Below are positions 19,950-43,260 of a DNA stretch of 56,108 bases, one piece after another; positions within the stretch are counted from its first letter, which is position 1; each line of letters opens with the position of its first letter. Source of the stretch: a virus (Duplodnaviria; Caudoviricetes); IMG/VR virus record IMGVR_UViG_3300031565_000040, positions 1 through 56,108 of that record. The stretch is one strand, 5' to 3'. The position numbers and the translations under genes were made by a program. The notes beneath the pieces are model-generated. The model did no database searches, had not been told where the DNA came from, and worked only from the letters and a program-made list of their open reading frames with translations.

Positions 19950-20069
19950 ATGACACCATTTCAAGCTCTACTTTATGGACTGTTGTGTTTTACGGTAGGT
20001 TATTTATTTAGAGAATTTGAAAAATGGCTATTAAAAAAACCAGAAGAACCGAACGAGGTTAAGGAATGA
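19950..20069 (+). CDS. 39-aa single-TM protein
   Basis: MTPFQALLYGLLCFTVGYLFREF...EPNEVKE between junction motifs. Confidence 0.6.
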   Translation: MTPFQALLYGLLCFTVGYLFREFEKWLLKKPEEPNEVKE

Positions 20070-23932: not shown

Positions 23933-24104
23933 AGTGCATTTTTTCGGAAGAAGGATATTTTGTGAGTTAAAACCTACAGATAACCCTGATATGCTCGGAA
24001 TCGAATTAAGCAAGGTACTTATGAAGGCAATAACGAACGAAACAACCAAAAAAACAAAAGAGTTACTCAATCCGAAAGGTGCGAAGATAATCCAACCCAA
24101 TTAA
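23901..24104 (+). CDS. Hypothetical protein
   Basis: Fills the operon gap. Confidence 0.55.
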   Translation: MSVMPMIQIPKVHFFGRRIFCELKPTDNPDMLGIELSKVLMKAITNETTKKTKELLNPKGAKIIQPN

Positions 24105-24114
24105 GGAAAGACTA

Positions 24115-24693: not shown

Positions 24694-24704
24694 GGAAGAA
24701 GACT

Positions 24705-25598: not shown

Positions 25599-25600
25599 AA

Positions 25601-25735
25601 ACCTGATTCAGACAACTCGCGCAAGCGAGCCTGATGCTTAGAGGCTAAAGCGGCCTCCGCGAAGCACGCGTTAAGTGTCAGGGGAGCCTGAAAGCTCAGA
25701 TAACTCTCCGAAACGTGAAGTAAGTAAATACGAAT
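25601..25735 (+). promoter_or_regulatory. Structured leader upstream of the major capsid gene
   Basis: CTCGC-GCAA-GCGAG tetraloop, GAGGC/GCCTC and GAGC/GCTC stems, twice TCAGA(C/T)AACTC. Confidence 0.45.
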
Positions 25736-25747
25736 TGGAGAATTATT

Positions 25748-26749
25748 ATGAGCGACCACGATTTTGGTACAAGATACCATTTAATCCAGTTGGCGAAGCT
25801 CGACGACAAGAGTCCTCTCAGTCGTTTCGCCAAAGTGCTCAGTGAATCCAATCCCATACTCGGTGACATGCCGATATACCCCTCCAATGAAATTCTGGGC
25901 TATACCGGTACGCGCGAGACCAGCCTTCCGACCCCTGTGATTATCAATGTCGGGGAAGGATGGGACGCCAGCAAGATGGAATGGGACAGCTTCACTGAGG
26001 TAATTTCAATGTTCAAAGACCGGATAGACGTTCCGCGTGATGTTCTTCGTATCCAGAAGAATAAAGCGCAAAAGATGCGTCTTATCCGCCAAAGGCATCA
26101 GGAAGGTTTTTCGCAGGGCGTTGCCAACCATCTTATCAACGGTTCGAGCGTAGCCAGTCCGCGTAAGTTCGACGGTTTGGGCATAAGGTATAAAACACCC
26201 GACGCCTCGGATGTTCTCAGTCCGACCAACGGCGATTACGGCGTCTACGATATGGGAGGCACGGGCGACGATACAACGAGTATCTGGCTCATCCAATGGG
26301 CCGAGGACAAGATTTGCGGTATCTGTCCGCAGAACGACCCTCATAAAGGTATTCGCATCGAGGACATGGGCAGGCAGTATTACACCGCCGAGAATTCCAA
26401 ATCCAATATCTGTTTAAGAACGGAGTTGGAATGGGATTTGGGACTTTGTGTAAGCGACTATACGGCCTGTGCGAGGATAAGGAATGTTGAGGTATCTATT
26501 GATTCGATGGATACTACCCTTTGGAAAAAAGTCATCGAAGCGAGGAACAACTTCAAGGGTTCCGAACCAGTGTGGATGTACTGCTCTCGAACCATCCTCA
26601 CTCAACTCGACATCATGTCGGTGGAGAAACAGAACGTCTTTTACGACAAGAACAACCCGTGGGGCACCCTGCGCCTGCGATTCCGTGACATGCCGATAGG
26701 CAAATGCGATTGCATCAGTGAGTCTGAGACTGCGGTTGCCGCGGCATAA
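25748..26749 (+). CDS. Major capsid protein (Bbp17-like, HK97 fold)
   Basis: LSESNPILGDMP, FDGLGIRY, GGTG...TSIWL..W, FRDMPI..CD.I..E. Confidence 0.9.
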   Translation: MSDHDFGTRYHLIQLAKLDDKSPLSRFAKVLSESNPILGDMPIYPSNEILGYTGTRETSLPTPVIINVGEGWDASKMEWDSFTEVISMFKDRIDVPRDVLRIQKNKAQKMRLIRQRHQEGFSQGVANHLINGSSVASPRKFDGLGIRYKTPDASDVLSPTNGDYGVYDMGGTGDDTTSIWLIQWAEDKICGICPQNDPHKGIRIEDMGRQYYTAENSKSNICLRTELEWDLGLCVSDYTACARIRNVEVSIDSMDTTLWKKVIEARNNFKGSEPVWMYCSRTILTQLDIMSVEKQNVFYDKNNPWGTLRLRFRDMPIGKCDCISESETAVAAA

Positions 26750-26766
26750 AGAAAGGAGGCACTCTT

Positions 26767-27228
26767 ATGGGTGCAGAGACTAATTTAGGCGTATTCAGTG
26801 AAAGTCAGGTCATTAACAGCACTGAAGCGTCCACAAAAGATATAGATTTGGCAATGACTCGCCATCAAATCGGCGTTGGCGTTCCAATCTATATTTGTGT
26901 TCGTGTTGCGATAGCTTTTACAGGCGCTACGAGTGTGGCTATCGCAATGGAAAACGACACCGATTCTGCTTACGGAAGCGCTGTCACGTTCCCCCTTCGG
27001 GCTGCTATCGAGTTGGCCGACGGACTTTCAACGCTTGGCCAATGGCTTTACAGGGGAACGCTGCCGTATGAATTAACAGAGACGTATTTACAGCTCAAAT
27101 ATACTTTGGTCGGTGCCGAAACTGTCGGCGCGGTCGATGCGTGGCTGAGTTTACTGCCGCCTTCGGATATTGGCGCTAACGCTCAGGTATGGGCTTCCAA
27201 TGTAGGCGATCCGGCGGCCCCGGCATAA
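26767..27228 (+). CDS. Capsid cement/decoration protein (Bbp16-like)
   Basis: FSESQ.I..T.AST..IDL, YLQLKYT, G.VDAWL; directly after the MCP. Confidence 0.75.
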   Translation: MGAETNLGVFSESQVINSTEASTKDIDLAMTRHQIGVGVPIYICVRVAIAFTGATSVAIAMENDTDSAYGSAVTFPLRAAIELADGLSTLGQWLYRGTLPYELTETYLQLKYTLVGAETVGAVDAWLSLLPPSDIGANAQVWASNVGDPAAPA

Positions 27229-27242: not shown

Positions 27243-30200
27243 ATGAAAAAGTTAATACTAATAACGATTATGGCCGTTCTTGCCTTCTCTACTCTTGCCG
27301 GTGCGGCCTTGACGTACGGCCCTGAATACTACAGGAAGCGCATTTCAAATGCGGGTTCGGGCTATGCGGACAGCGACCCCGTTTATCTTTTTATGAATGA
27401 GGTCGATGAGAACTTAATAAGTTCGGGCGGGGCGGCGAGTGTCTTGTTCACGCCCGGCACAGCACCTACCGGCGCAGAGGGTCTGGTCTATTACGATGAT
27501 GCTTCGGACACCTTGATGCTCTATTCAGGCGCATCCGGGCCTTGGAAGACTATAGACCTTGCTGGTGCATCAAATCTGGATACGGCCTACAACAACGGAA
27601 ACACTATAACTGTCGATGGAGACGCCTTAACTTTTACGGCGGGTGCCGGTACGAATAACGGCGTACTTACGTTAGTCCAGTCGAATACGGGAGCTTATGA
27701 AGGTTTGAAGATTACCAATGCCGGAACTGACCCATCCATTGAGATTGACGGTTCGGGTACTGGTGACGACATTACAGGGACTGGTGATACCTGGACTATT
27801 TCAGAGGCAGGTGTCGGTAGTTTTGTCGGTTTAATCTCAGGTGCTTCCGATATTGTCATGGAGAACTCCGACATCTTCTCGAACGGCACCAATAATACCT
27901 TTACGTTCGCCGGTAACGAAGCAACTGTCGAAGATTTAAGTATCGGACTTGGTGTAAATACTAATATTGTTACGCTTTCGTCCAGTACCGGTGCTACAAC
28001 CATAGACTGGGGTGCGATGACGACCGCTTCCGGTATGACGACTATCACCGGCGACGCCGCTATCTTTACAATCGGCTCGACGGGCACTTCTGCCGGACAT
28101 GATGTGATTATTCAACAGGCGGGAGTTACGGATCAACAGTTGGTTCTCCAGTCATCGGGTAATGCGACAAATGCTCTGAGACTTCTCGCTTCTGCTGCCG
28201 GTATTGATATAGACGCTACGGGCAGTACACTGACTATCACCAATACAGCCGACGGTGCCGACGACGATATTACTATCGAGCAGGACGGAGATCAAAACGC
28301 TTCTATCATCTTAACTTCCGATGGTACGGGCGGCGATGCTATCAGTCTTATCTCATCGTCTGCCACGGGTGATATTAAAGTGGCTTCCGCCGACGAGATA
28401 GACATTGACGCTGCATCCACTATTGATATTGCCATAGCGGGTTTAGCTACTCAGGACTTTATAGTCACCAATACCGGCGGCTCTATTATTATGACCGCCA
28501 CTGAGGATATTGCGGATGGTATCTATCTTCATTCTACTACCGGTGGAATAGATATTGTTGCCGACGGCGCAGCAGCCAAAGACCTTGACCTGACCTGTAC
28601 GAACGGTTCGGTCATCGTTACGGCAGGCGAGGCTAATTCCGATGCAATTAAACTCAACGCGAGTGCCGGAGGCGTCAATATAGATGCCCTTGCCGCTTAC
28701 GATGTGGATATTGCAGGCGGTCAGGTCTTGATTTCTTCCTTAGACAATGCCGCAAGTGCAATTGCTCTGACAACGAATGTGAATACCTTGGAGACTATTG
28801 TCGTCACCAATACCAAAGGAACGGCAGCAGGCGCAATTACCCTTACCGCAACGGCGGGAGGTGTCGATATTGATGCTGCCGCTGCTAAGGAAATCAATAT
28901 TGCCGGCGGTAACGTGGCGATTGTCAATAAGACGGCTGGCGCAACGGCTATTACGGCGATAACCAACGTAGATACTACCGACCAGATAGTCGTTACCAAT
29001 ACCAAAGGCACTAATGAAGCGGCCATTGATATTACCGCAACGGCTGGCGGTATCGACATTGACGCCGCTGCCGGTAAAAACGTAGCAATTAACGGCGGTC
29101 AAATTCTCATCGAATCGGAAGATGATGGAGCAAGTTCCATTCAGTTAAAGACCAACACAGGCAATACCGAGACTATCGTAATTCTCAATAGTCAGGGCGC
29201 CGGTGACGACTCTATTAATATTGACTCTACCGCAGGCGGTTTGGACGTCGATGTTGCCAAAAGTTTGGCACTTACTTCAAGTGAAGGCGCTCTCGATTCG
29301 GTAGTTATCACATCGACCAACGGCGGTATTGACTTAATTACTACCGGAGCCGTTGCCACGGAAGACATTGACATTACAAGTAGTGCGAGTGTCAATATCA
29401 CTTCTGCGGAAAACATTGCTGCTGCGATTGTAATTGCAACAACAGGCGGCGGAGGAGCGGCCGAAACGATTGATATTACCAATAATCAGGGTATTACTTC
29501 TTCATTAACGACTGAGACGGATGCTGCGATTCAACTCGAAGCTACTGTCGGCGGTATTGGTTTGTATTCGGGTTTGAGCGGCGCCGATGCTATCCGCTTA
29601 GAGACCGCCGGTGCGGCCGCGCAAATGACTTTGCAGGCCATTGCCGGTGTAGGCGCTTCCGCTACCGGAGAAGAAGATGCCGCCATTCAACTTTATGCCC
29701 AGGCCGGTGGTATTGGTCTGGCTTCGGGTCTTGCTGCTGCTGATGCTATTCGCATCGAAGCCCAAGGTGCTAACGGTCAAATAACGATACAGAACAAGTT
29801 AGGTATAACCGCTTCTTCTGCAACGCAGTTCGACGCATCTATTCAGCTTTACAGCGAGGCAGGCGGTATTGGCTTGCATTCAAAACTGAACGGGGCGGAT
29901 GCTATCCGTATCGAGGAAGGCGGTGGTACTGGAGGTACTATCAATATCCACGCCAATACGGGTAACGCCGTTGCCGATGGAGCCGCTTCTATCAATCTTT
30001 TGAGCGATGTTGGCGGTATCGGTCTTAAAGCGACGGGACTGGCAAGTGCTAATGCAATCTGGATTCAGGCTGCCGCAGGCGGTGTTAATATTGACGCTCA
30101 GGCAGCTTACGATGTCGATATTGACGGGGGTCAGATTTTCCTTACCTCATCTCATAACGTACCGGATGCCATCAAGATTCATTCTGATTCAGGTGCGAAT

Positions 30201-32582
30201 GCGAACATAAACATTCTCAACGATGAATGTACGGGCACGGAAGCAATTACGATTACATCAACTCTTGGCGGTATTGACGTTGACGCCCATGAAGATATAA
30301 ATATTACTCTTCACGCCGAGAGCGCCGATGAGGATATTATCCTTTTGACAACCGGAACATCGGATAGTCATATCTCGATTACAGCAGACGGTTCTGACGA
30401 CAATGCCTTGGCGCTTATTGCAAGTGTGGCGGGTATCGACATAGACGCTGCCGGCGTACTGACGATGGATGCCGACGACGATATGACGATTACCGTAGCG
30501 GCAGAGTCCGATGAGGACTTGACTATCCAGTTGCAGAACAATGTCGATGCAAGCATTTTAATTAGCTCTGCGGGAAGCGGAACGGATTCGCTCAGTCTTA
30601 CAACGGTGACAAACGGCGGCGATATTGTTATCAGCTCCAACGACAAAATAGATATGGATTCGACGGGTACGTTTGCCCTGAATGCGGCCGGAGATACCTT
30701 GCTGATTCAGGTGGATTCCGACGGCGCAGACGATGATTTAACTATCAAAGTCGATGGCGATGATGATTCCTCTATCATTCTTGACAGCGACGGTTCCGGC
30801 GCCGATGCGATTAGTTTACAGGCTTCTCATGCAACGACAGGCGGTATTGACGTTGATTTCAAGTCGGGTAACTTTACTCTTACCGGCTCAGGAGCAAGCG
30901 CCGATGTAATCGTAGACTGCGACCTTTTCAGTATAGACGGTACAGGTTCGGCTAATATCACTGTTGCCGCAACTGAAGCCGGTGAAGACCTTACTATCAG
31001 TCAAACCGGTACGAATGCTTCGAGTGTTGAAATTGTATCATCGGGCCGATGTGCGGATGGGATTAAATTGCATTCCAATGGTGATGCAACTTCCGGTATT
31101 TACATACATTCTCAAACCGGAACCGCTGCATCGACAGCGACTGAATCTGATGCCGCTATTCAGCTTTATAGTCAAGTCGGTGGTATAGGTCTTCTGTCGG
31201 CTCTTAACGCCGATGATTCTATCAGGATTGAGACAAACGGCGGCGACGATGAGAATATCACGATACGCGCCAATCAGGGAACCGGAACCGACTCGATTTA
31301 TATATTGAGCGATGAAGGCGGTATCGAGATTGAGGCGACCGCAAGTACGGCGGCAGGCGCAGGGGCATCTGCCGTTCAATTGACCGCTTCGTTGGGTGCT
31401 ATTGAATTGACTTCGGGATTAGATGCTACCAATGCGATTAAGTTGACTGCCAATGGTAATACAAACTCTGATATTAACATCTGGAACGATACCGGTAGTA
31501 CATCAGATTCGATTAAAATATTAAGCGACCTTGGCGGTATTGCCGTTACAGCGAGTGACGATGCGATTGTGTTGACGGCAGACGGCGCTACTGTAGGCGA
31601 TATTACTATTGACGGCGAGAATAAGGTCACGATTGTTTCAGCCGACCTCGATGCCGAAGGTATTTACATCCACGAGAATTCGACAAGCGGTACGGCCGGC
31701 TCGATAAAGATTCATGCCGATAAAGGTATTGCTGAAGCTACCGGAGCATCTTCGGTAACGCTTCTTAGCGACGTTGGCGGTATCAATTTGAAAGCGGCGG
31801 CCTTAACGAGCGAGAGTTCGATTTGGATTGAGTCCATTGCCGGTGGTGTTAATATAGATGCCGCCGCCGGTAAAGACGTCGATATTGACGGCGGGCAGAT
31901 TCTTCTCGAAGCCAACCACGATATAGCCAGTGCAATTTCCTTAATTACCAATACCGGTACATCCGAGACCATTGTAATTACTAATACTTTAGGCAATGCG
32001 ACGGGTGCAATCACCTTAGAAGCGACTGCCGGAGGTATTTCACTTAGTGCTTTATCTGGAATGGACTTCGGAGAAGGTGCCGTTGTCAATGTTGGCGATA
32101 TTTCGGTTGATGATGTTATCGCCGATGCCAACGACAACGTAGTTCTCAGTGCGGTCAAGATGCTTGTGGTTTCGATTTCCGTCGATGACGATCCCGCTAC
32201 CGATTTCCAGTATGACAATACTCAGGAGAACAAAGTAGAACAAGGTATAAGGGTTGGCAGAATTCCAGCCAATTGCATGATTAACTCTGTATTTGTTTTA
32301 TGTACCGAGACTATTACGGCTGGAGGTCAATTTGCCACTGAGATTGGTACTGCTACTGGAGGCGATCAGATTTTAACTACTTCGGATTGTGATACCGCTG
32401 ATGACATTATGGGCACGGCAGCCGCAGAGATACCGGAAATAGCTGTTACCGGCTCCATTATAGATGTTTACGTTAGTGGCACTCCGACTACAAATGACTT
32501 TGATGAAATAACGGCAGGTAGTTGGGACGTTTGCATCGTCTACACGGATTACGCCGCTGCATTAGCGCAGACGGGTACTTAA
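27243..32582 (+). CDS. 1779-aa acidic beta-repeat protein with Sec signal peptide (head-fibre or adhesin-like)
   Basis: AAGGAG RBS; MKKLILITIMAVLAFSTLAGA; many AI.L.A..GGI.IDA repeats. Confidence 0.85.
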   Translation: MKKLILITIMAVLAFSTLAGAALTYGPEYYRKRISNAGSGYADSDPVYLFMNEVDENLISSGGAASVLFTPGTAPTGAEGLVYYDDASDTLMLYSGASGPWKTIDLAGASNLDTAYNNGNTITVDGDALTFTAGAGTNNGVLTLVQSNTGAYEGLKITNAGTDPSIEIDGSGTGDDITGTGDTWTISEAGVGSFVGLISGASDIVMENSDIFSNGTNNTFTFAGNEATVEDLSIGLGVNTNIVTLSSSTGATTIDWGAMTTASGMTTITGDAAIFTIGSTGTSAGHDVIIQQAGVTDQQLVLQSSGNATNALRLLASAAGIDIDATGSTLTITNTADGADDDITIEQDGDQNASIILTSDGTGGDAISLISSSATGDIKVASADEIDIDAASTIDIAIAGLATQDFIVTNTGGSIIMTATEDIADGIYLHSTTGGIDIVADGAAAKDLDLTCTNGSVIVTAGEANSDAIKLNASAGGVNIDALAAYDVDIAGGQVLISSLDNAASAIALTTNVNTLETIVVTNTKGTAAGAITLTATAGGVDIDAAAAKEINIAGGNVAIVNKTAGATAITAITNVDTTDQIVVTNTKGTNEAAIDITATAGGIDIDAAAGKNVAINGGQILIESEDDGASSIQLKTNTGNTETIVILNSQGAGDDSINIDSTAGGLDVDVAKSLALTSSEGALDSVVITSTNGGIDLITTGAVATEDIDITSSASVNITSAENIAAAIVIATTGGGGAAETIDITNNQGITSSLTTETDAAIQLEATVGGIGLYSGLSGADAIRLETAGAAAQMTLQAIAGVGASATGEEDAAIQLYAQAGGIGLASGLAAADAIRIEAQGANGQITIQNKLGITASSATQFDASIQLYSEAGGIGLHSKLNGADAIRIEEGGGTGGTINIHANTGNAVADGAASINLLSDVGGIGLKATGLASANAIWIQAAAGGVNIDAQAAYDVDIDGGQIFLTSSHNVPDAIKIHSDSGANANINILNDECTGTEAITITSTLGGIDVDAHEDINITLHAESADEDIILLTTGTSDSHISITADGSDDNALALIASVAGIDIDAAGVLTMDADDDMTITVAAESDEDLTIQLQNNVDASILISSAGSGTDSLSLTTVTNGGDIVISSNDKIDMDSTGTFALNAAGDTLLIQVDSDGADDDLTIKVDGDDDSSIILDSDGSGADAISLQASHATTGGIDVDFKSGNFTLTGSGASADVIVDCDLFSIDGTGSANITVAATEAGEDLTISQTGTNASSVEIVSSGRCADGIKLHSNGDATSGIYIHSQTGTAASTATESDAAIQLYSQVGGIGLLSALNADDSIRIETNGGDDENITIRANQGTGTDSIYILSDEGGIEIEATASTAAGAGASAVQLTASLGAIELTSGLDATNAIKLTANGNTNSDINIWNDTGSTSDSIKILSDLGGIAVTASDDAIVLTADGATVGDITIDGENKVTIVSADLDAEGIYIHENSTSGTAGSIKIHADKGIAEATGASSVTLLSDVGGINLKAAALTSESSIWIESIAGGVNIDAAAGKDVDIDGGQILLEANHDIASAISLITNTGTSETIVITNTLGNATGAITLEATAGGISLSALSGMDFGEGAVVNVGDISVDDVIADANDNVVLSAVKMLVVSISVDDDPATDFQYDNTQENKVEQGIRVGRIPANCMINSVFVLCTETITAGGQFATEIGTATGGDQILTTSDCDTADDIMGTAAAEIPEIAVTGSIIDVYVSGTPTTNDFDEITAGSWDVCIVYTDYAAALAQTGT

Positions 32583-32597
32583 TAGAAAGGAAAGACT

Positions 32598-32879
32598 ATG
32601 AAAGAATGGAAAACTATTGTGGTAGTGGTTCTTATCGCACTGCTCGTTGCAGCATTGGTCTTTATGGCCGCAGACAAGAACCAGACGAACGCAGCGCCTG
32701 AAGAAGTGGCGTTGTCTAATTTGAAAGAACGAATAGGGCAGTTGAAAGTCCTGAAAGAAGAACAGACTTTGACGCGGGACATTATGGTGATTCAGCAGCA
32801 AATAAGAGACCTTAGCGCCGTTGCTCCGATTCAATCTGTAATTCCGAAAGAGCGACTGCCGGAAGAATTACAGGAATGA
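32598..32879 (+). CDS. N-terminal TM/signal plus coiled-coil protein
   Basis: MKEWKTIVVVVLIALLVAALVFMA; heptad pattern. Confidence 0.75.
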   Translation: MKEWKTIVVVVLIALLVAALVFMAADKNQTNAAPEEVALSNLKERIGQLKVLKEEQTLTRDIMVIQQQIRDLSAVAPIQSVIPKERLPEELQE

Positions 32880-32902
32880 CTATGGATACATGGTTTTCCT
32901 TC

Positions 32903-32942
32903 GGGATGGGAGGGGGTCGAAAGACCCTCCCTATCCTTATTT
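32903..32942 (+). terminator. Intrinsic terminator-like hairpin
   Basis: GGATGGGAGGGGGTC-GAAA-GACCCTCCCTATCC followed by TTATTT. Confidence 0.65.
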
Positions 32943-32953
32943 AAGGAGTAAAG

Positions 32954-33313
32954 ATGCAGACTGTAAGAAAAGTCAGTTTAGACCAGCAGAGTTGGGATTC
33001 GGGCGCGAGCGAAAAGGCTACGACTTACAGGAAAGTCAATGGTAAGTGCGAGCAGATAGCGGTCAAAATCAGTGTGAACACGAACACCGTAGCTGGCAAA
33101 GTTTCTATATATGATTCCAACGGCGGTAAGCTCTACGAAAAGACGAGCATCCCGACCGGAACGACTACTATCTATTACGGCAATAGTTTAGGCTCGACTG
33201 ACTGTGACTTCAAATCCTTCCTCTGCGACGGCAAATTGACGGTAGAAATAACACCTGACGGCGATCCCGGCACTACGGGCGTGAAGATAGATGTTGACCT
33301 TTATGTGAGGTAA
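32954..33313 (+). CDS. Small beta-sandwich virion protein, no signal peptide
   Basis: TAAGGAG RBS; beta-strand pattern. Confidence 0.75.
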   Translation: MQTVRKVSLDQQSWDSGASEKATTYRKVNGKCEQIAVKISVNTNTVAGKVSIYDSNGGKLYEKTSIPTGTTTIYYGNSLGSTDCDFKSFLCDGKLTVEITPDGDPGTTGVKIDVDLYVR

Positions 33314-33316
33314 AAG

Positions 33317-33724
33317 ATGAGACGCTTTACGTGCTTTTTACTTTTATGCGCCTTGAGCGGAACGGCTTTAGGCGGGTCGATATGTCCGTTTACGACAATC
33401 TTCATGCGTACTTTGTTAGATGATGCAACGGCTTCGGCGGCGAGAACGACTTTGGGACTTGGTACGACTGATTCTCCGACGTTTGTGAAAGTCACGTTAT
33501 CCGGCAATGAAATCAACGTAGCTACGTCGCAGATACCGAGTTCGGCAACTGCGGCGGGAAATGCCGGTGATATTGCGTGGGGGTCGGATTATATCTATAT
33601 ATGCGTGGCCGGTAATACGTGGAAACGGTCGGCCTTGACTACATGGGGCGGTCTACCGGAAAACGTAATCTTTGCCGGAGAAAACGTCATTTTTGCCGGA
33701 GAACAAGTTATATATTATCCATAA
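33317..33724 (+). CDS. Fibre-like protein with signal peptide
   Basis: MRRFTCFLLLCALSGTALG; RTLLDD...AARTTLGLG and GDIAW..DYIYIC...NTWKR fibre motifs. Confidence 0.75.
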   Translation: MRRFTCFLLLCALSGTALGGSICPFTTIFMRTLLDDATASAARTTLGLGTTDSPTFVKVTLSGNEINVATSQIPSSATAAGNAGDIAWGSDYIYICVAGNTWKRSALTTWGGLPENVIFAGENVIFAGEQVIYYP

Positions 33725-33733
33725 GGAACGATT

Positions 33734-34708
33734 ATGAAAAAGCTATTGATTTTACTCATATTGTTAATGTTTTCAGCAACAGTCTTAGCAGACCTTACAG
33801 GAACGGAAGGTCTTGCGATTGACCTTTCAAGCGCAGGAGCCGGGACTGATATTACTATTGCCTTCGACCCTACCGAGCTTTTAGGAAACCGTACATGGGG
33901 TGACGCTTCTACCGATACGATAGTCTGGACGTGGAACAAGGCCACGGGGACAGACCCTACGATTACCTTTAACAGCGGTTCGATAGCCTTACCGGCCTTG
34001 ACATTAGTTACGCCATTGGCCCTGAATTACGGCGGGGCCGGGGCGGACATTTCAGGCTGGTCGGGGATTGTTGCTGTTTCCGGTGGGTCTGCCGTAGAAG
34101 TAGACACATTTGCGGAGATTGATACGCAAATTGCCGACAAAGCCCTTGTGAATAAAGCCGATGGTGCGGTGTGGCTCGGCATACATGATTACGGAGGGGC
34201 GGATTTGGAACTACCTCAAGCATCACCCGCCGTTCCCGGCGTGGATGGTGGCATTGAGATTGACTTCACAGACGGCACGGTAGTCATTCAGCACGGAGCG
34301 GCACATGCCGAATTAGCGGCTTCCACTGACGTTGTGATAGGTAAGCTCATAAAGTCATGGTCTGGTACAATCTTCGAGCCTGATAATGTGAACGATGTAC
34401 TGACCGTCAAGGCAATCAATTCTATCCAGTATCCTCACGGTGTTGTTATTACAGCCGTTTATCTCGGCGTCTCATCGGATACGGGATACGTATTAACAGT
34501 CCAGAATTTCGACGACTTTGATACGATAAACGCTGCGAACGGGACGATAGACACAGTGACTTATTCCGCCGATACGACGGGAGAAATCATAGATACGACA
34601 CCAACATACGCAACGATAGCGGCGGGGCAGATAATTATGATTAGCATTCCGGCTACAGATGTGGACTGGATACATTTTGAGATTTATTACTACGAACCGG
34701 CGGCATAA
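33734..34708 (+). CDS. Fibre-like protein with signal peptide
   Basis: MKKLLILLILLMFSATVLA; PLAL.YGG.GA fibre motif. Confidence 0.75.
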   Translation: MKKLLILLILLMFSATVLADLTGTEGLAIDLSSAGAGTDITIAFDPTELLGNRTWGDASTDTIVWTWNKATGTDPTITFNSGSIALPALTLVTPLALNYGGAGADISGWSGIVAVSGGSAVEVDTFAEIDTQIADKALVNKADGAVWLGIHDYGGADLELPQASPAVPGVDGGIEIDFTDGTVVIQHGAAHAELAASTDVVIGKLIKSWSGTIFEPDNVNDVLTVKAINSIQYPHGVVITAVYLGVSSDTGYVLTVQNFDDFDTINAANGTIDTVTYSADTTGEIIDTTPTYATIAAGQIIMISIPATDVDWIHFEIYYYEPAA

Positions 34709-34723
34709 ATGGGGGTTATTAAA

Positions 34724-35530
34724 ATGAAACGATTACTGATTCTTTATTTTGTATTTTGTATTCTGTGTTCTGTTTCTTTGGGCGATAACGACTTTGGGGA
34801 TGTTAACTGTGTCGCTCTTTGGAGACTTGAGAACGGAGCGCTTACGGTCGATTCAAAAGGCGGCAACACCCTTACAAATGACGCAGTTGTGGCAGATGCA
34901 GTAAATTATAAAGAAGGGGAAGCGTCTGGAGACTTTGAGTGGAGTTCGTCGGCCTTTATGACCATAGCTGACGCTGATCTTGATGCCGGATTTCCTCTCA
35001 AGGATGGCGATTCAACAAAAAAAATATCTGTATGTGCTTGGATTATGCCGGAAAGTTTACCTACCGAAGGTTGCTTTTTTGCAAAATGGGACCATGCTGG
35101 TTTGAAAAGGCAATTGCAAATACTACAACTTGGAAGCCCTAGCGATATAAGAGTTTATATAGGTTATAATGGCGGTGTATCCTATGAAGAAGTAGTTACA
35201 CTCAATACGAACATGGTCGTTAACCAGTGGTATCACATCGGTTTTACATTTCAAGATTCAGACAAATCATGGCGTCTTCGCGTTTGGGACGAGTCTGGCG
35301 AAAGTGTGATGGAGGATACTGGCAATACGATAAATAATATAAACATAGAAGATTCATTTTTTACGTTAGGTTGTGTATCGGATGGGATAAATCATTTTGA
35401 TGGCCGCATAGATGAGGTGGTGGTTTTTAATGATATTCTAACTTCTGATGAAATCGACCAGATAAGGGTAGGCACTTACGGAGTTGCTGCCGGTGGCGGT
35501 GGTCAGGTGATAATCATATATGAAGACTAA
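34724..35530 (+). CDS. LamG/concanavalin-like lectin-fold protein with signal peptide
   Basis: MKRLLILYFVFCILCSVSLG; SVCAWI.P, WYHIGFT, FDGRIDEVVVFN..LT.DEI. Confidence 0.85.
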   Translation: MKRLLILYFVFCILCSVSLGDNDFGDVNCVALWRLENGALTVDSKGGNTLTNDAVVADAVNYKEGEASGDFEWSSSAFMTIADADLDAGFPLKDGDSTKKISVCAWIMPESLPTEGCFFAKWDHAGLKRQLQILQLGSPSDIRVYIGYNGGVSYEEVVTLNTNMVVNQWYHIGFTFQDSDKSWRLRVWDESGESVMEDTGNTINNINIEDSFFTLGCVSDGINHFDGRIDEVVVFNDILTSDEIDQIRVGTYGVAAGGGGQVIIIYED

Positions 35531-36515
35531 AATTATAATGTGTTCTATATTCTTCGTTTTGTGTTCTGCTGTGCAGGGAGCTAATGAAATCTGCGCCGTC
35601 GCGCCGGGCATTACAAACGCTTATGGCGTCGTAAGAGAACCGGATGGCGATGTCTGGTACGTCACAGGGCAGGTTTTCGAGGTGTGGGGAACGGGTGCTC
35701 GAACGGCTGCGGATTACGACATTGCATTGGTGGACAAGTCGGGCGGTATGTTAGTTGGGGATATGGATACGAGTATTTCAGCCGGATACTATCACATAAT
35801 AACACATTATCGGGTGGGTGCTAATCCCGCCGATACCGACCCTGCCGTGTGGCAGGAATACGGATACTGGAGCGGAACGGTTTGGCAACCCTATACACTA
35901 AAGACTATCGAAGATAAAGTTGATGATTTACCAACCGCTGCCGGGACAGCCGATGCCGTATGGGACGAGGCTATGGCCGGACATACTGGCGAGGCCACTT
36001 TCGGCGGTGAATTACAAACACTCGACCCGAACCTTACTTTGGTATTGGCGGATACGGCCGAGCTTCAAACCGACTGGCACGATGGCGGGCGGCTCGACCT
36101 TCTAATAGACGCTATTAAGGCGGAGACCGACCTAATAACTATCCATTCGACTACGGTAGCCGAGGCCAACGATGCCAACGAATTCATTCTGACTGATGGT
36201 ATAGGTACAGATGTTAACGATTCCTGGAACTATTCGGTGATTATCATTCAGGACGCCGACGACGGCCACTGGGAATCGAGATTCATTTACGAATGGGACA
36301 GCGATAAGGAAGTTGAAGTCGATGAGACTCTTGGCTTCATTCCGGCGGCGGGTGACGTTGTTCATATCATGGGGACTGGATACGGGGGATTTTTGTACCG
36401 GATACTTTCGACCATTCAGCAGGCAAGAGGCGTTCTGAATGTTATTGATACTACGGGAACTTCAAGAGCGGTTGGGGGCGTAACTCGAATAGACGCTATG
36501 GGTGACGACCCGTGA
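35520..36515 (+). CDS. Acidic virion-associated protein with signal peptide
   Basis: MKTKIIMCSIFFVLCSAVQG; ADAVWDE and ADTAELQTDW..GGRLD motifs. Confidence 0.75.
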   Translation: MKTKIIMCSIFFVLCSAVQGANEICAVAPGITNAYGVVREPDGDVWYVTGQVFEVWGTGARTAADYDIALVDKSGGMLVGDMDTSISAGYYHIITHYRVGANPADTDPAVWQEYGYWSGTVWQPYTLKTIEDKVDDLPTAAGTADAVWDEAMAGHTGEATFGGELQTLDPNLTLVLADTAELQTDWHDGGRLDLLIDAIKAETDLITIHSTTVAEANDANEFILTDGIGTDVNDSWNYSVIIIQDADDGHWESRFIYEWDSDKEVEVDETLGFIPAAGDVVHIMGTGYGGFLYRILSTIQQARGVLNVIDTTGTSRAVGGVTRIDAMGDDP

Positions 36516-36534
36516 CACAATTCCTGGGGGGATT

Positions 36535-37410
36535 ATGGCGGATAATGAAGAAAAACGGGCCTTATGCAACAGGGCGATAACAATTCTAACTGCCGGTATG
36601 ACCGCTCAGGCGGGGATTCTCCATACAGAGATAACCGATGAGCAGTTCGCCGACTATACTTCGGTAACGACCGACCAACAGATAAAGCTTTTATGCTTTT
36701 TGTACGAGCCGGTCTTATTGAAGGTCATTCTCGATATTCAGCCGGACTTCGCTAAACAGTTCGCAGACTTGGGGAATGAGATTTGTATCAATAAAGAGGT
36801 AGGCGACTGGGGACTTCTATTCGAGTTGCCGAGTAACTTTATAGAAGATGAAAATGCGTTAATTGCCCAAATCAGTCAGGCCAATAGGAAAACTAAATAT
36901 GACTGCAAGATTCTGACTTTCGACGGTTACGCCCATGTCGTTAAGGGTACGGACGAACAGTCGTGGTATTGTAAGACCGACCATACGGCGGCGGCGGCCA
37001 ATAAACCGATTACCGGTGCAGATTACGCAACCTATTGGACTCTCTATAATACCGACGACTCTTACGGTGCTGATTGGGTATCTGGATGGTCTTACAAAGC
37101 CTCTCAGGACGGCAAATTATTAGCGGCCAATTCCTATTCCAATCTTGATGGTGACAGTGCGTATATAGAGTATCTCGCCTACATTCAGGCCGGTATTTCC
37201 GACAAGCCCGCGTATTATCCCAATGCCTTTAAGAACGCCTTCTGTACGAGACTTGCAGCTGAGATGGCGGAGGATGGTCACGATTACGAGCGCAGAAGAA
37301 AACTTATGGAGGAATACGAGTTAATTGCCAAGCCGCGGGTGTGGCAGGTTCAGAACAGGAACGATTTCGAGGAAACAAGACCGACATTTTTAGAGTCAAG
37401 GACGATATGA
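36535..37410 (+). CDS. Tail tubular protein A / adaptor (T7 gp11-like), no signal peptide
   Basis: ALCNRAI..L, FELPSNF, F..AF..RLAAEMA; directly before the nozzle gene. Confidence 0.75.
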   Translation: MADNEEKRALCNRAITILTAGMTAQAGILHTEITDEQFADYTSVTTDQQIKLLCFLYEPVLLKVILDIQPDFAKQFADLGNEICINKEVGDWGLLFELPSNFIEDENALIAQISQANRKTKYDCKILTFDGYAHVVKGTDEQSWYCKTDHTAAAANKPITGADYATYWTLYNTDDSYGADWVSGWSYKASQDGKLLAANSYSNLDGDSAYIEYLAYIQAGISDKPAYYPNAFKNAFCTRLAAEMAEDGHDYERRRKLMEEYELIAKPRVWQVQNRNDFEETRPTFLESRTI

Positions 37411-39935
37411 TGAAAAGGTTCATACTTATATTTATATTCTGTACGGCAGCGATGGGCGCGAGCCTTACGCAAACAATTTCTCTCAATAGTTTCAACGCCG
37501 GTGAACTCTCGCCTCTTATGAACGCACGGGTGGACTATCCGAAATATAAACTCGGCGCAAAGACTTTAGAGAACATGATAGTAAGGGCGCAAGGGCCAAT
37601 ATCGAGGAGGCCGGGCACTAAATACATCGCTTCGGTAAAAGACGATACGGACGCTACAAGACTGATTCCCTTCGAGTATTCGACTATCTACGCCTATATT
37701 GAAGAAGTAGGCGACAAATACGCGAGGTTCTACCGTACCGTTGATGGTGTAGCCGGTCCGATTGTAACTACTTATTCTGCATGGGCCACATCCACGGCTT
37801 ACAGTGTAGGTGCGTTAGTGACACACAGCGGTTACTATCGGTGTTTGGTAGCCCATACATCAGATGATTGGGATACCGATTTAACTGCCGTCAAATGGGC
37901 AGTAACCGCCGGGGCTACCGATCTTGCCTACGAGATAGTCACACCGTGGGACGAAAGCGACGTCTTTGAGCTTCAATTCTGTCAGGATGCCGAGACGATG
38001 AGAATTGTCCATCCCGACTACGAACCCTACAAACTCACGAGGACTGGTCATACCTCATGGACGTGCACGCCGATAAACTCTACCACCGGCCCTTTTCTCG
38101 ATGAGAATAACGATACTACGTGGACTCTGACATCAAATAAGACTACGGGTACGGGCGCTACTATTACTTCAACGGACGACCTTTTCTTGCCCGACCCAAA
38201 CTACGTAGGTGCGTTGTTTCAAATAAGTCATTCCCTTGCCGCCGGTTCGGTAACGAAGTTATTTTGGTCGTCTGGTGATTCAACTTCGGATTCGATTACA
38301 GTCCAGAAGTACCGGTACTACGATGTCATTACAAGCGGTTCATGGGCGGGCACTTTCAAAATACAAAGGTCTTACGGTGACGATGTTTGGGAGGATGTCT
38401 ACAGTATCCGCTATACGTATAACGGGAATATCCAATATTCCGGGCAGGAACTTGAAAAGACCTGCCTTTACCGAATGAAAATGGTAGACCAGTATTTAAC
38501 AAGCCACAACCTACGGCATTACGAGGGTATGTGCTACGGCAATTTTAACGCTCGCGGCTTTATGAATAACGGAGTGGTCGAGATAACCAGTGTTACGAAT
38601 ACGAAGGTCGCTACTGCCGATATAAAGATAGCTATAGGAGCGGCCGATACTACTACTTATCACTGGTCGGAGGGTGCATGGAGCAATTACCGGGGCTGGC
38701 CGAGGACGGTCGAGCATCACGAGCAGAGAGTCATTTACGGCGGCTCAGCATCTTATCCCCAGGCTATATGGGCCTCTATTATAGCGACTCAGGACTCCGA
38801 TTACGATGACTTCACTGCCAATACCGAATCCGATTCCACAGGGAATTTAGGAGGCCCGGATGATATTGCGTGGACATATACATTGCCGGGCATGAATCCA
38901 ATTCAATGGATGAAGTCAACCGAATATTTAATGATAGGCACGACTTCGGGGGTAGGGAAATTAGGCCAGCCGGACAAACCAATTACTCCCAACTTCCCCC
39001 CGACTTTTCGTATCCAGAACCATAACGGGTGCGCTTATATTCAGCCGAAAGGCGCGGTTGACGCCCTTCTCTACATAGAGAGGGGCGGTCAGAAAGTCAG
39101 GGAACTCGCCTTTGCATACTCTTCAGATAAATACGAAGCGCCTGATATGACCGTCTTGGCCGAGCACATAACAGGCGATGGCATAGTCGAGATAGATTTT
39201 CAGAACCGGCCGGAACCTATCTTATGGTGCATCAGGGAAGATGGTCAGTTGCTTTCATTCACCTATCACAGAAAGCACGATGTCCTTGCGTGGTCGAGGA
39301 ACGATACGGGCATTGCAGACAAGTTCAAATCGGTAGCGGTGATACCCGGTACTAACGAGGACGAACTTTGGGCGATAGTTGACAGGACGGTAGATACTTA
39401 CGTTGAGCAGTTCCAGCCGTGGGACTGGGGGACAGACCAGAACGACTGCTACTTTGTGGATTGTGCGGTCGATGATATAACGAATTTGATTCATATCGAG
39501 GGCGAGACGGTCGCTCTATTTGCGGACGGCCGGCCGATAGGCACTTACACGGTCTCAGGAGGCGAGATAAGTCCATCGGGTAGTTATACCTATACTACAG
39601 TGGGGCTTCCTTATACATCCGTTTTCGAGACAATGCCGCTTACAGCCTCATCGAGTCATGGTTATATAAACGCAGAATATACAAGGATAGCATCTCTCAT
39701 TGTTGACTTTTACAAGACTTTAGGCTGTCACATAGGCCCGGATGCAACCAATACCCACGATTTCAAGTTCTCCAACGATTCTTTCGCCACGACTTTGGAT
39801 GTTGTAACAGACTTTAAGGTGTCACCGTATCTGTGGGGAACGAAACGGTCGCCGACAATCTATTTTCAGGAATCCGATCCTATCCCTCTGACTATCAGGG
39901 GCGTTTATCCGAGAGTTATAGTAAGTTATGATTAA
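37407..39935 (+). CDS. Tail tubular protein B / nozzle (T7 gp12-like) with N-terminal signal peptide
   Basis: SFNAGELSP, RRPGT, RLIPF, GWPR....EQR, AWSR, VGLPYTS; preceded by MMKRFILIFIFCTAAMG; AAGGA RBS and ATGA coupling. Confidence 0.9.
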   Translation: MMKRFILIFIFCTAAMGASLTQTISLNSFNAGELSPLMNARVDYPKYKLGAKTLENMIVRAQGPISRRPGTKYIASVKDDTDATRLIPFEYSTIYAYIEEVGDKYARFYRTVDGVAGPIVTTYSAWATSTAYSVGALVTHSGYYRCLVAHTSDDWDTDLTAVKWAVTAGATDLAYEIVTPWDESDVFELQFCQDAETMRIVHPDYEPYKLTRTGHTSWTCTPINSTTGPFLDENNDTTWTLTSNKTTGTGATITSTDDLFLPDPNYVGALFQISHSLAAGSVTKLFWSSGDSTSDSITVQKYRYYDVITSGSWAGTFKIQRSYGDDVWEDVYSIRYTYNGNIQYSGQELEKTCLYRMKMVDQYLTSHNLRHYEGMCYGNFNARGFMNNGVVEITSVTNTKVATADIKIAIGAADTTTYHWSEGAWSNYRGWPRTVEHHEQRVIYGGSASYPQAIWASIIATQDSDYDDFTANTESDSTGNLGGPDDIAWTYTLPGMNPIQWMKSTEYLMIGTTSGVGKLGQPDKPITPNFPPTFRIQNHNGCAYIQPKGAVDALLYIERGGQKVRELAFAYSSDKYEAPDMTVLAEHITGDGIVEIDFQNRPEPILWCIREDGQLLSFTYHRKHDVLAWSRNDTGIADKFKSVAVIPGTNEDELWAIVDRTVDTYVEQFQPWDWGTDQNDCYFVDCAVDDITNLIHIEGETVALFADGRPIGTYTVSGGEISPSGSYTYTTVGLPYTSVFETMPLTASSSHGYINAEYTRIASLIVDFYKTLGCHIGPDATNTHDFKFSNDSFATTLDVVTDFKVSPYLWGTKRSPTIYFQESDPIPLTIRGVYPRVIVSYD

Positions 39936-42426
39936 ACTACTTATAATATTATTTTTATGCCTAACACCTGAGCAGAAAGCGTGGGAAAACATTCAGTTAC
40001 CTAACGATTCCGTTCTTGCATGGTCGCGCCATAAGACGGGATACAATCAGGATGATAAGTTTCTTTCCGTAGCGACTATTCCCGGATCAGGTGGAGAGGA
40101 TGAGGTCTGGGTGATAGTCGAAAGGACTATAGATGGTGTAAAGCAAGTCAATGTCGAGCAATTCCAGCCCCGCGACTTCGGAGACCAGAACAATGCTTGG
40201 TTTGTCGATTGTGGCTTAGTGGGATGGAGCGATGGCGGTGGTGGGTTAATTAACATAATTGAACCTACCGATGATGTTACGGTGGGCGAATATCCGACTT
40301 TGCAGGAACTTACTGACGATGAGATACCTGATACCCCGGCAGAGCCGGAAGATACGGCGCTTGTCGGAGCAACGAACGTCAATGATTACGCCGGATTACA
40401 GGCTATGACCGGATCAGGTCATTATAATATCACTGGCGATATAGATTTGGAAGGTGAAACGTGGATTCCGATAGATGATTTCAGTGGGGTTATAGAAGGT
40501 AATGGTTTTACAATTTCAAATTTAACTCATACCGCAGAAGCATCGGCATTCGATACCGGCATGTTCAATAATCTACTTTCCGGCGCGGAAATACGCAATT
40601 TGACATTGAAAGATTTTGCCATTACAGGTGATTTTGGGACGGGTGCTTTGGCAGGTAACGGAGTTGGGGATATTGTAATTAAAGATGTTAATGTAACAGG
40701 TTGCACAATTGAGGGTTATTGCTATCTTGGTGCACTCGTTGGTTTTCTGGAAGAAATAACTTCCGGTGGTATTTATGATTGTGATGCAATTGATTGTACT
40801 ATATCGGGTACGGACTGGTCAGGCGGCTTGTGTGGATATATTGAAATTGATAACGATGCAACAGATGACTTTAATATTGTCAACTGTAGTGTTGCTGACG
40901 GCACTCTTACAGTATTGGATGGTACTTATTGCGGTGGCTTGGTCGGTTCGGGAGAGGGAACAATCCATACTACCCCGGATAGATATATCACTTTTCATAC
41001 ATGCAGTTCCTCTATGAACATAATAGTAGGGGACACAGATGAAGCGCAGTCTCTTGGCGGATTTATTGGCCTTGCAGACTGGTGCGATTTCATCAGTTGT
41101 TCCGCAACAGGTAATATAGATTATATAGGTTCAGATAGTGGCGGCATTCCTTATGGAATAGGCGGTTTTGTCGGATTTGAAACAGGCGTAGGCACGTATA
41201 TAAATTGCTATTCAACCGGCGATATAACAATGGACGCAGAAAACTTTTCTCTAATGCAGCTCATTGGAGGCTTTGTCGGAAAATGCGACCAGACAGCAAC
41301 TCAGATATTTACTCGATGCTATTCAACTGGTGATATTACTATGACAAATGTTGGCAGTATGTCATGGCATGGAGTTGGTGGTTTTATGGGAGGCTATCTT
41401 GGTACTGGCGGAACAATTAGAAGATGCTGGTCTGAAGGCGATATTAGTTTAGACGACGAAGGAGTGCCGGGAGTAACATACAAAGGCGGACTTGGAAGTT
41501 TTATAGGCATGATATGGCATAGCGATACCGGGGCAGGAACAATCGAAAATTGCTATGCCTGGGGCAGTATAACAATCGAGACACTGAACGAGAACGATGA
41601 TGATTTGGGCGTTAGCGGCTTTTTGGGAAGTATAGCAAAATTAGGGACATACACATTGACGAATTGCTACGATGCCCAGACCGATACGGCGACAGGTTCG
41701 GGATATACAAGTCAAATCCCAACGGGAGATTATTCCAAAGGTTTGGTCGGATGGCTTACGACGTCTGTTACTGTAACCGATACTGCAATATTCTGGGATA
41801 CAGAGACATCAGGTATAGACGAAGATGATTATGCCGTTGGCCATATAACGACATGGATGCAGACACAGGCGAACTACGAGGCCGCCGGTTGGGACTTCGA
41901 TACGATATGGGTTTTGGATGAAGTGACTACCCCTGGCGAGCCTGGCGACAGCGAACCTAATACATGGAGCGGCATGGATCATGCTATTGGTATGGAAGTA
42001 TGTGTTTACGCCGATGGCCGACCGATAGGAGTTTATACTGTAGATGCCAACGGTGTCTTGGATTTAGGTGCGGAATACGAGACTGTAATAGCCGGTATAA
42101 ACTATTATTCAACTTATGAGTCTTTTCCCTTAGTCACGGAGACCAACTTCGGTTTGAGTACCGGCCAGCAGGCGAGGATAATGGATATTACAATAGACTT
42201 CTACGAGTCTTTAGGCTGTCACGTGGGGGTTGACAGGACTAACAGTACCGACTGGATTTTTAGTAAAGACGATTTCGCAACGAGGATCGACCTTGTGACC
42301 GAATACAAAAAAGGTTCTTTCCTGTGGGGCACTACGCGCGAGCCGATAGTCTATTTGTGGGAATGGGAGCCTGTGCCTCTAACCGTGAGGGCAATATATC
42401 CGAAAATGGGGGTAACAAGTGATTAA
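39928..42426 (+). CDS. Paralog of the nozzle C-terminal region with an inserted GLUG-type beta-helix
   Basis: Both ends align to the last ~215 aa of the nozzle; interior has GGLVG/GGFVG and CYSTG repeats plus GWDFDTIW. Confidence 0.85.
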   Translation: MIKLLIILFLCLTPEQKAWENIQLPNDSVLAWSRHKTGYNQDDKFLSVATIPGSGGEDEVWVIVERTIDGVKQVNVEQFQPRDFGDQNNAWFVDCGLVGWSDGGGGLINIIEPTDDVTVGEYPTLQELTDDEIPDTPAEPEDTALVGATNVNDYAGLQAMTGSGHYNITGDIDLEGETWIPIDDFSGVIEGNGFTISNLTHTAEASAFDTGMFNNLLSGAEIRNLTLKDFAITGDFGTGALAGNGVGDIVIKDVNVTGCTIEGYCYLGALVGFLEEITSGGIYDCDAIDCTISGTDWSGGLCGYIEIDNDATDDFNIVNCSVADGTLTVLDGTYCGGLVGSGEGTIHTTPDRYITFHTCSSSMNIIVGDTDEAQSLGGFIGLADWCDFISCSATGNIDYIGSDSGGIPYGIGGFVGFETGVGTYINCYSTGDITMDAENFSLMQLIGGFVGKCDQTATQIFTRCYSTGDITMTNVGSMSWHGVGGFMGGYLGTGGTIRRCWSEGDISLDDEGVPGVTYKGGLGSFIGMIWHSDTGAGTIENCYAWGSITIETLNENDDDLGVSGFLGSIAKLGTYTLTNCYDAQTDTATGSGYTSQIPTGDYSKGLVGWLTTSVTVTDTAIFWDTETSGIDEDDYAVGHITTWMQTQANYEAAGWDFDTIWVLDEVTTPGEPGDSEPNTWSGMDHAIGMEVCVYADGRPIGVYTVDANGVLDLGAEYETVIAGINYYSTYESFPLVTETNFGLSTGQQARIMDITIDFYESLGCHVGVDRTNSTDWIFSKDDFATRIDLVTEYKKGSFLWGTTREPIVYLWEWEPVPLTVRAIYPKMGVTSD

Positions 42427-42775: not shown

Positions 42776-42779
42776 TAAG

Positions 42780-43256: not shown

Positions 43257-43260
43257 GATT

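Follow-up and report, generated by a model that had tools for sequence, protein, structure and literature searches.

Tailed phages are, to our knowledge, held to assemble wholly in the cytoplasm from proteins without export signals. Among phage proteins, lysis proteins and the coat proteins of filamentous phages are known to bear signal peptides. Secreted and signal-arrest-release (SAR) endolysins as well as spanins are late proteins that use the host Sec pathway and wait in the periplasm until permeabilisation; SAR domains are weakly hydrophobic and rich in Gly and Ala. The proteins pIII and pVIII of filamentous phages are virion components that bear signal peptides and are assembled outside the cytoplasm. 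In P22 and lambda, heads and distal parts join spontaneously in lysates. The present analysis deals with the tail genes of a virus of the Caudoviricetes, the IMG/VR record IMGVR_UViG_3300031565_000040. The window is the entire 56,108-bp record, which is graded complete and holds a late module of the T7/BPP-1 type. It includes a cluster of ten tail genes (T1 to T10), most of which begin with leaders resembling Sec signal peptides. Our reading, which we regard as evenly poised, is that the distal-tail proteins would be exported by Sec, cleaved by signal peptidase, folded in the periplasm and joined to adaptor-capped heads after the inner membrane is breached.

The central protein is T9, the nozzle (tail tubular protein B). 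Its homology to phrog_376 (E-value 2.8e-154) begins at residue 24 and extends to residue 838, and it matches the PDB entry 8CK1, 'Tail Nozzle' (E 3.6e-163). In gene order, it comes after the adaptor and before the internal-virion genes. Judged by these matches, T9 is a full-length nozzle; it is homologous over its full length to the canonical podovirus nozzle of the T7 gp12 type, and the order adaptor, nozzle, ejection proteins is the same. The closest solved nozzle, gp44 of the Cobetia phage Carin1 (8CK1), is leaderless, and its alignment begins at its residue 15. The accessible part of PMC13730344 names 8CK1 as gp44 of phage Carin-1. Canonical nozzles are hexamers, and the names of their beta-propeller, platform, fibre-dock and tip domains are taken from that source.

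The initial annotation had quoted eight N-termini, those of T1 (27243), T2 (32598), T4 (33317), T5 (33734), T6 (34724), T7 (35520), T9 (37407) and T10 (39928), and all are present at these starts. Inspection of the N-termini bore out that eight of the ten genes between the cement and internal-virion genes begin with leaders, and that portal, scaffold, capsid, cement and adaptor proteins have none; the ejection proteins lack them too. The leaderless members of the tail cluster are T3 (32954) and the adaptor-like T8, whose start was placed at 36535 and not at 36502. Every signal-like call made here comes from one rule alone, which requires a positively charged n-region, a hydrophobic 9-mer free of charges and a cut site with small residues at -3/-1, and which flags 3% (28/936) of the open reading frames (ORFs) in control phage loci. 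In the window, it flags 10 of the 63 plus-strand ORFs of at least 80 aa, namely 7/10 tail-cluster genes and 3/53 others (Fisher p = 2e-5). T10, with its short leader that lacks a -3/-1 site, is missed. Beyond the cluster, the three flags fall on ORF 11177, on the 20 opening codons of the terminase ORF (17984), and on an internal start within the cement gene.

Six of the leaders (T1, T4, T5, T6, T7 and T9) have the full Sec type I layout: Lys or Arg at residues 2-4, an uncharged core rich in Leu, Ile and Phe, an A-x-A or A-x-G-like end, and a polar mature end behind it. T2 is anchor-like instead, and T10 has no clear cut site. The n-region is positive in 8/8 leaders, and the uncharged h-region spans roughly 7-15 residues, with the exception of T2 (20 residues); T2 excepted, the hydrophobic cores are too short for a stable membrane anchor. 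Small neutral residues stand at -3/-1 in 6/8, all but T2 and T10, an agreement that is weak as an independent test because the rule favours small residues when choosing the cut site. Lipoprotein, twin-arginine (Tat) and SAR identities were considered and rejected, their motifs being missing in 8/8. The lipobox [LVI][ASTVI][GAS]C was found in 0/8 leaders, though five have a Cys in the hydrophobic region, and the Tat motif in 0/8. The Gly+Ala+Ser fraction of the eight is 0-0.33, and their Leu/Ile/Phe-rich cores differ from the Gly/Ala-rich SAR domains.

The leaders are translated from the upstream ATG. Shine-Dalgarno (SD) motifs (AAGGAG, AAGGA or GAGGT) lie 4-6 nt 5' of the leader ATG in T1 (AAGGAG, 6 nt), T2, T4, T5 and T9 (AAGGA, 4 nt), and the T9 start overlaps the stop of the adaptor gene. 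Within the next 45 codons, no in-frame ATG, GTG or TTG is preceded by an SD motif, which excludes the starts downstream of the leaders that had been named as a refuting outcome. For T10, the first 45 codons offer no alternative start, and upstream there is a single open codon. Wrong start codons are thus ruled out by the placement of the SD motifs.

The form of the leader is conserved far beyond the window. The 120 best homologues of T9 were taken from 5.8 billion proteins, and 99 of them were flagged automatically; by eye, the other 21 comprised six full leaders, two partial ones, four proteins without their N-terminus and nine leaderless proteins. About 105 of the 116 assessable close homologues bear a leader. 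Its sequence varies freely while its form is kept: among the 99 automatically flagged proteins, the median length is 18, the net charge of the n-region is at least +1 in 98, residue -1 is A in 54, G in 42 and S in 3, and A, V or L prevail at -3. After the predicted cut, 0-16 residues (median 11) remain ahead of an invariant SFNAGE-type motif, and leaderless homologues start 3-19 residues before the same motif. Therefore, the N-terminus after cleavage would resemble the leaderless one, and the leader is an add-on to an otherwise ordinary nozzle.

These figures also bear on a different role for the leaders. Uncut or late-cut leaders could hold the tail parts on a platform at the inner membrane, the hydrophobic end being released or removed when the head joins. 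The 20-residue anchor-like stretch of T2 and the missing -3/-1 site of T10 suit such a tether, as do other small anchor-like proteins in the tail modules of three related loci (L003, L156 and L099). T2 itself is likely an uncleaved signal anchor facing the periplasm, to judge from its hydrophobic stretch. Most leaders, however, are about 18 residues long, and their cores of 9-13 residues do not suffice to span a membrane stably. Residue -1 is A, G or S in 99/99 flagged leaders, although the rule favours these residues. The positive N-terminus would moreover place the bulk of the protein in the periplasm, so that heads must still reach it. We consider the tether improbable.

An exhaustive search of 1.84 billion representatives gave 7,224 nozzle matches at E <=1e-30. 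Among the best 150 clusters at 50% identity, 57 were automatically flagged and six more were leader-bearing by eye, which places the trait in at least 63 sequence clusters. The top-ranked clusters are nearly all leader-bearing, and leaderless forms dominate below about 38% identity. In a FastTree phylogeny of 217 nozzles (115 with and 102 without a leader), built with the leader columns removed and with 11/120 proteins omitted as truncated, the trait needs 11 changes, whereas 200 label shuffles needed at least 60 and on average 72, in a protein set biased to relatives of the leader-bearing query.

Leaders on neighbouring genes go with a leader on the nozzle. Of 149 fetched loci that were processed, 107 contained the nozzle ORF in full. 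Twelve leader-positive loci offered at least four further ORFs each, and there 36/136 neighbour ORFs were flagged, against 28/936 in 88 loci with a leaderless nozzle (p = 4e-18). Among the 12, L066 was wrongly flagged by the rule and adds 0/14. The leader is a trait of the genome, not of a single gene. Could the whole pattern still be an artefact of wrong starts or of chance hydrophobic N-termini? The terminase ORF with its hydrophobic 20-codon upstream extension demonstrates that such extensions can arise by chance. Nevertheless, the SD motifs are in place, homologues from independent gene calls keep the form, and chance is ruled out by the co-occurrence and by the 11 changes on the tree against at least 60 in shuffles. 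The artefact can hardly be credited.

The proposed export of the distal tail predicts a division within each genome, and the same signal/no-signal split, which the initial annotation had asked to be checked in homologous phages, was found across a large clade. In the 13 leader-positive loci, labelled portal, capsid, cement, adaptor and internal proteins were flagged in 0/21 cases, labelled distal-tail proteins in 22/24 and unlabelled ORFs in 27/109. Homologues of the ejection proteins in these loci were flagged in 0/7 cases and homologues of T8 in 0/5; in L101, the rule wrongly flags an adaptor-like gene and an ejection-like protein. The boundary of the leaders is the adaptor-nozzle joint, with proximal proteins lacking and distal proteins bearing one. 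The one close viral contig (L002) has 51% nozzle identity and a higher GC content. There, homologues of T1, T9 and T10 and three other tail-region ORFs have leaders, and the homologues of T3, T8 and the ejection proteins have none. The two-compartment interpretation of the initial annotation is partly supported: the split is conserved and lies precisely between adaptor and nozzle, where that model needs it. The further steps, from export and cleavage through folding in the periplasm to when and where the halves join, are predictions from sequence only.

Table 1. Late-module features of the window with their positions, strand and assignments
Feature	Position	Strand	Match or N-terminus
Small terminase	15811-16293		
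Large terminase	17984-19651		
Head module overall	21891..27228	+	family matches and N-termini; leaderless
Portal	21891-23666	+	PF12236; no leader
Scaffold/protease-like	24705-25598	+	phrog_458; no leader
Major capsid protein, GP7-type	25748-26749	+	PF20911, E 2.6e-57; no leader
Cement, Bbp16-type	26767-27228	+	PF21190; no leader
Tail cluster, ten genes T1-T10	27243-42426	+	
T1, fibre-like, 1779 aa	27243..32582	+	Sec-like leader (first 21 residues, A-G-A before predicted cut)
T2, 93 aa	32598..32879	+	N-terminal 20-residue hydrophobic anchor, then charged, probably helical part
T3, function unassigned, 119 aa	32954..33313	+	leaderless
T4, tail-fibre-like C-terminus, 135 aa	33317..33724	+	Sec-like leader; best phrog_17312, E 1.5e-10
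T5, 324 aa	33734..34708	+	Sec-like leader (V-L-A before predicted cut)
T6, concanavalin-A-like lectin domain, 268 aa	34724..35530	+	Sec-like leader; PF13385 Laminin_G_3, E 5e-17
T7, 331 aa	35520..36515	+	Sec-like leader (V-Q-G before predicted cut)
T8, adaptor-like (tail tubular protein A position)	36535..37410	+	leaderless
T9, nozzle (tail tubular protein B), 842 aa	37407..39935	+	~17-19-residue leader
T10, nozzle C-terminal-module paralogue, 832 aa	39928..42426	+	short hydrophobic leader without clear cut site
Internal virion (ejection) proteins I1-I4, four genes	42419-48560	+	phrog_308/4177, phrog_418, phrog_6651; no Sec-like leaders

The tail-cluster genes (Table 1) are spaced by -11 to +19 nt, save for one gap of 74 nt, and such tight spacing argues for one late operon as opposed to inserted morons. 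No family could be assigned to T1, T5 or T7, and T1 had no match in Pfam, PHROG or the PDB. The N-terminal 250 aa of T1 have leader-bearing homologues in five loci (L140, L100, L130, L107 and L125), and a 60-residue stretch of T5 matches a 1594-aa leader-bearing protein of L102. T7 homologues in L003 and L102 bear leaders; a leaderless one in L105 starts at the residue aligned with the predicted +1 of T7. T4 matches PHROG tail and tail-fibre families, and its homologues in L003, L102 and L104 are flagged (3/3); the T6 homologue in L003 bears a leader as well. T3 homologues in L002 and L102 (two copies) are flagged in 0/3 cases. T2 gave no family match and no BLAST homologue among the fetched loci. 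For T8, the PDB sequence search gave no match and the AlphaFold model from an 11-sequence alignment reached a predicted local distance difference test score (pLDDT) of 47; the assignment was made from profile comparison instead, the family profile matching the pre-nozzle gene of Caudoviricetes sp. vir555 (tail protein, phrog_394; hhalign probability 98.1%, E 8.6e-14).

T10 is a copy of the last ~215 residues of the nozzle, split by a 580-residue GLUG/IgA1-protease-like insert (PF07581, PF05342) that matches PDB 9EFK and IgA1 protease. Its residues 29-97 correspond to 626-688 of T9 and its residues 681-832 to 692-842, at 41-59% identity. The leader of T10 is the weakest case in the window, and its L002 homologue has a canonical one. 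T10 is a gene newly made from the C-terminal half of the nozzle, and it nonetheless bears a leader, which counts for export. In T9, residues 125-157 form a chitin-binding-type insert (PF02839, CBM_5_12). Other members of the clade have lectin, F5/8-type or E1-FCCH-type inserts at this position.

Not every genome places the boundary at the nozzle. In L107, a T1-like protein with a leader adjoins a leaderless nozzle, and large leader-bearing proteins lie by leaderless nozzles in L026 (Thermoguttaceae label) and L057 (a 2.3-Mb Candidatus Brocadia contig); two of these three loci bear Planctomycetota labels. Therefore, a fibre-like protein can bear a leader without one on the nozzle. These loci, the lectin, chitin-binding and GLUG/peptidase-like domains of the leader-bearing proteins, and the failure to recognise an endolysin in the window would also suit a second job outside the virion. 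An exported pool could mask receptors, remodel the envelope, aid lysis or block superinfection, and virions would be built from the unexported fraction. We consider this improbable. The nozzle has no known role outside the particle, yet most of its close homologues bear the leader; no internal SD-bearing start would supply a leaderless form, and a pool that leaked through would retain the hydrophobic end. A function as lysogenic-conversion surface proteins, also named beforehand as a refuting outcome, is inapplicable to a full-length nozzle homologue such as T9.

The host of this virus is possibly a member of the Planctomycetota, as suggested by contig binning. With one genome per GTDB species, 70 nozzle loci were found, and six have a nozzle leader: two are labelled Pirellulales, and one each Phycisphaerae, Planctomycetota, Desulfobacterales and Dependentiae, so that 4/6 of these species-representative contigs bear Planctomycetota bin labels. 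The best Planctomycetota-labelled contigs, G001:C2 (37.7 kb) and G002:C18 (44.7 kb), hold phage genes from end to end, and the host link therefore comes from binning alone. Among 401 sampled Planctomycetota genomes, 12 had a nozzle match; G001 was close and the other 11 were distant (27-35% identity). Six distinct chromosomal prophage nozzles in Planctomycetota with readable N-termini are leaderless; nine further loci were left out, as the motif search missed the N-terminus. The trait is thus not forced by the phylum, and a phylum-wide requirement for leaders is ruled out. On this sequence evidence, the leader trait is one of a viral clade, not of all Planctomycetota phages. Among cultured phages, 212 GenBank records match the nozzle, all at <60% identity. 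Among the 85 of these 212 matches that were listed, the best identity is 38% and the named hosts are Proteobacteria. In three records with early-starting alignments, the annotated gene start leaves no room for a leader, and no cultured member of the leader-bearing clade was found among the 212.

Such hosts raise the question of whether a leader could have a host-specific meaning. It might target proteins elsewhere, or be ignored late as the phage shuts Sec down, and serve folding or timing only. The four Planctomycetota labels invite the idea, and the accessible part of a review (PMC12673574) ascribes to this phylum an invaginated inner membrane and an extended periplasm into which macromolecules are taken up; phages are named once in that part. 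In contrast, the leaders resemble ordinary secretion signals in the same Planctomycetota bins, and a functionless signal would have been lost in a clade with nozzle identities down to ~30%. A host-specific meaning is therefore unlikely. The accessible part of PMC10945688 describes how an unrelated phage of 21.9 kb is released without lysis by a Phycisphaerae strain, which is a lead only.

Cys is enriched in the hydrophobic cores of the leaders (3.3%, as compared to 0.76% in whole proteins). It is found in the leaders of T4, T6, T7, T9 and T10 and of 44/99 nozzle homologues, often 5-7 residues before the predicted cut. With the same rule applied to 200-400 kb per genome, flagged leaders with Cys numbered 28/71 in a Pirellulales bin, 17/52 in a Phycisphaerae bin, 12/33 in a Desulfobacterales bin, 6/26 in Stenotrophomonas and 8/32 in Denitrobaculum, the raw ORF calls at high GC being noisy. 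As a host signature, Cys-rich leaders do not discriminate, since the trend follows low-GC bins generally.

The export reading can be set out step by step. The translated leaders would be true signal peptides of Sec type I. Production and assembly of the head, portal, adaptor and ejection proteins would take place in the cytoplasm, and the nozzle, its paralogue, the fibres and the lectin-like proteins would be threaded through SecYEG, cut by signal peptidase I, and would fold and oligomerise in the periplasm, where T2 may act as a membrane-anchored helper. DNA-filled, adaptor-capped heads would meet the distal tail once the inner membrane opens late, through holin-type lesions or at lysis, so that infectious particles would form at or after the opening. 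The spontaneous joining in P22 and lambda lysates makes the final step chemically plausible. According to the accessible part of PMC13730344, the N-terminus of the canonical nozzle belongs to the platform domain. A retained hydrophobic helix would be awkward at this place, which fits removal of the leader before assembly. At slightly under even confidence, we extend this to the proposal that an uncultured T7/BPP-1-like podovirus clade, possibly of Planctomycetota, builds its virion in two compartments, with the lysis programme switching on infectivity. The genomes with leaders on fibres only (L107, L026 and L057) would then be earlier stages, and the compartment boundary would have moved inward, from the fibres to the adaptor-nozzle joint.

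If the hydrophobic ends were instead kept on the mature particle, they might insert into the host membrane at infection. Non-enveloped viruses often breach membranes with hydrophobic peptides, and the N-terminus of ejection protein I2 is also hydrophobic. However, the leaders are laid out like complete export signals, with n-, h- and c-regions and a cut site, which would route them to SecYEG in any bacterium, they stand on at least seven unrelated proteins, and leaderless relatives infect without them. Such an entry device seems very unlikely.

Several points weigh against the export reading. Export and cleavage are deduced from amino-acid sequences alone, and the rule behind the calls flags 3% of control ORFs and is wrong for L066 and for the two L101 proteins. 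No route for heads into the periplasm has been identified. In the window, no gene was recognised as an endolysin, and small membrane proteins are the only holin candidates. The leaderless Planctomycetota prophage nozzles add to this. Podovirus heads, as in T7 and P22, are thought to need the nozzle for DNA retention, and a delay between packaging and nozzle addition is therefore a difficulty. Cys content, a mark of oxidative folding, gives no clean split between proteins with and without leaders in the window: the capsid protein reaches 2.4 Cys per 100 aa, while Cys is absent from T5 and mature T7. In nozzle homologues, the values are 0.73 with and 0.58 without a leader, a slight difference that is confounded by relatedness; four Cys columns are commoner in leader-positive nozzles.

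Other features of the window deserve mention. Three tyrosine-recombinase genes point to a temperate lifestyle, as judged from gene content. The stretch 12200-15800 is the sole one with negative GC skew and minus-strand genes; it has few long ORFs, contains an integrase-family gene (12609-13175), and is probably the lysogeny switch region. Positions 1-1135 and 53349-54484 form a 1.1-kb direct repeat of 99.5% identity, and the record begins within a duplicate of the 3' portion of the integrase gene (53095-54111). As the repeat does not extend past 1135, this is not a simple terminal overlap. In the early region, 11177-11647 encodes a 156-aa protein with a strong signal-like N-terminus ending in Cys-x-Gly-Cys and no family match, possibly a lipoprotein, e.g., for superinfection exclusion or spanin-like. 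The large terminase ORF opens with 20 hydrophobic codons and its homology starts at residue 26; translation probably begins at Met 21. Directly upstream, a 105-aa ORF (17666-17983) matches phrog_2472, the family of the C-terminal half of the terminase, which suggests a duplicated or split terminase piece. Between terminase and portal, the membrane-protein genes 20066-20557 and 20822-21364 have identical 119-bp 5' ends (20053-20171 and 20809-20927) that encode one same N-terminal transmembrane segment, and a third small membrane protein (20554-20832) sits between them; these could be lysis or membrane-platform proteins. The largest ejection protein (44739-48560) contains a DnaJ J-domain at residues 297-345 (PF00226, E 1e-8), and over the N-terminal 430 residues it shares 50% identity with its L003 counterpart. 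Once injected, the J-domain could recruit host Hsp70 during entry.

The nozzle is an essential core part of the tail, and here it carries a secretion signal, as do the distal tail proteins. If the two-compartment route holds, this would be a new kind of assembly for tailed phages, the most abundant virus group, in which head-tail joining is tied to membrane breach and in which Sec, signal peptidase and periplasmic folding factors become host factors. Genome annotation would then be affected too, because pipelines use signal peptides to separate 'secreted host-like' from virion proteins. If the signals serve otherwise, another function would have been conserved over deep divergence. Furthermore, as the clade has no cultured member, the finding points to a phage-host pair worth isolating.

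In the full-text literature, as far as its partial coverage goes and with an earlier mention possible, no tailed phage was found to be described with Sec leaders on its nozzle or its fibres. By their sequences, the protein parts are of known kinds, and systematic export signals on them appear to be new. The head is of the type of Bordetella phage BPP-1 and Salmonella phage epsilon15, with the same GP7-type capsid (PF20911) and Bbp16 cement (PF21190); the nozzles of both are distant matches whose alignments begin at query residue 28, past the leader. The make-up of the nozzle paralogue T10 recalls the split nozzle of Pseudomonas phage A1002, as presented in the accessible part of PMC13730344. 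Secreted and SAR endolysins and spanins share the use of Sec but differ as lysis proteins, which are not virion parts. Filamentous phages, whose coat proteins are the subject of PMC4823517 as far as that source is accessible, extrude through the envelope without a pre-formed DNA-filled head, whereas here an icosahedral head of the T7/BPP-1 type must join the exported parts. With the P22 tailspikes and lambda tails, the proposed route shares the spontaneous joining of separately made heads and distal parts once the cell contents mix. In those phages, both parts are cytoplasmic and their separation is a laboratory device, while in the clade described here separation would be the natural route.

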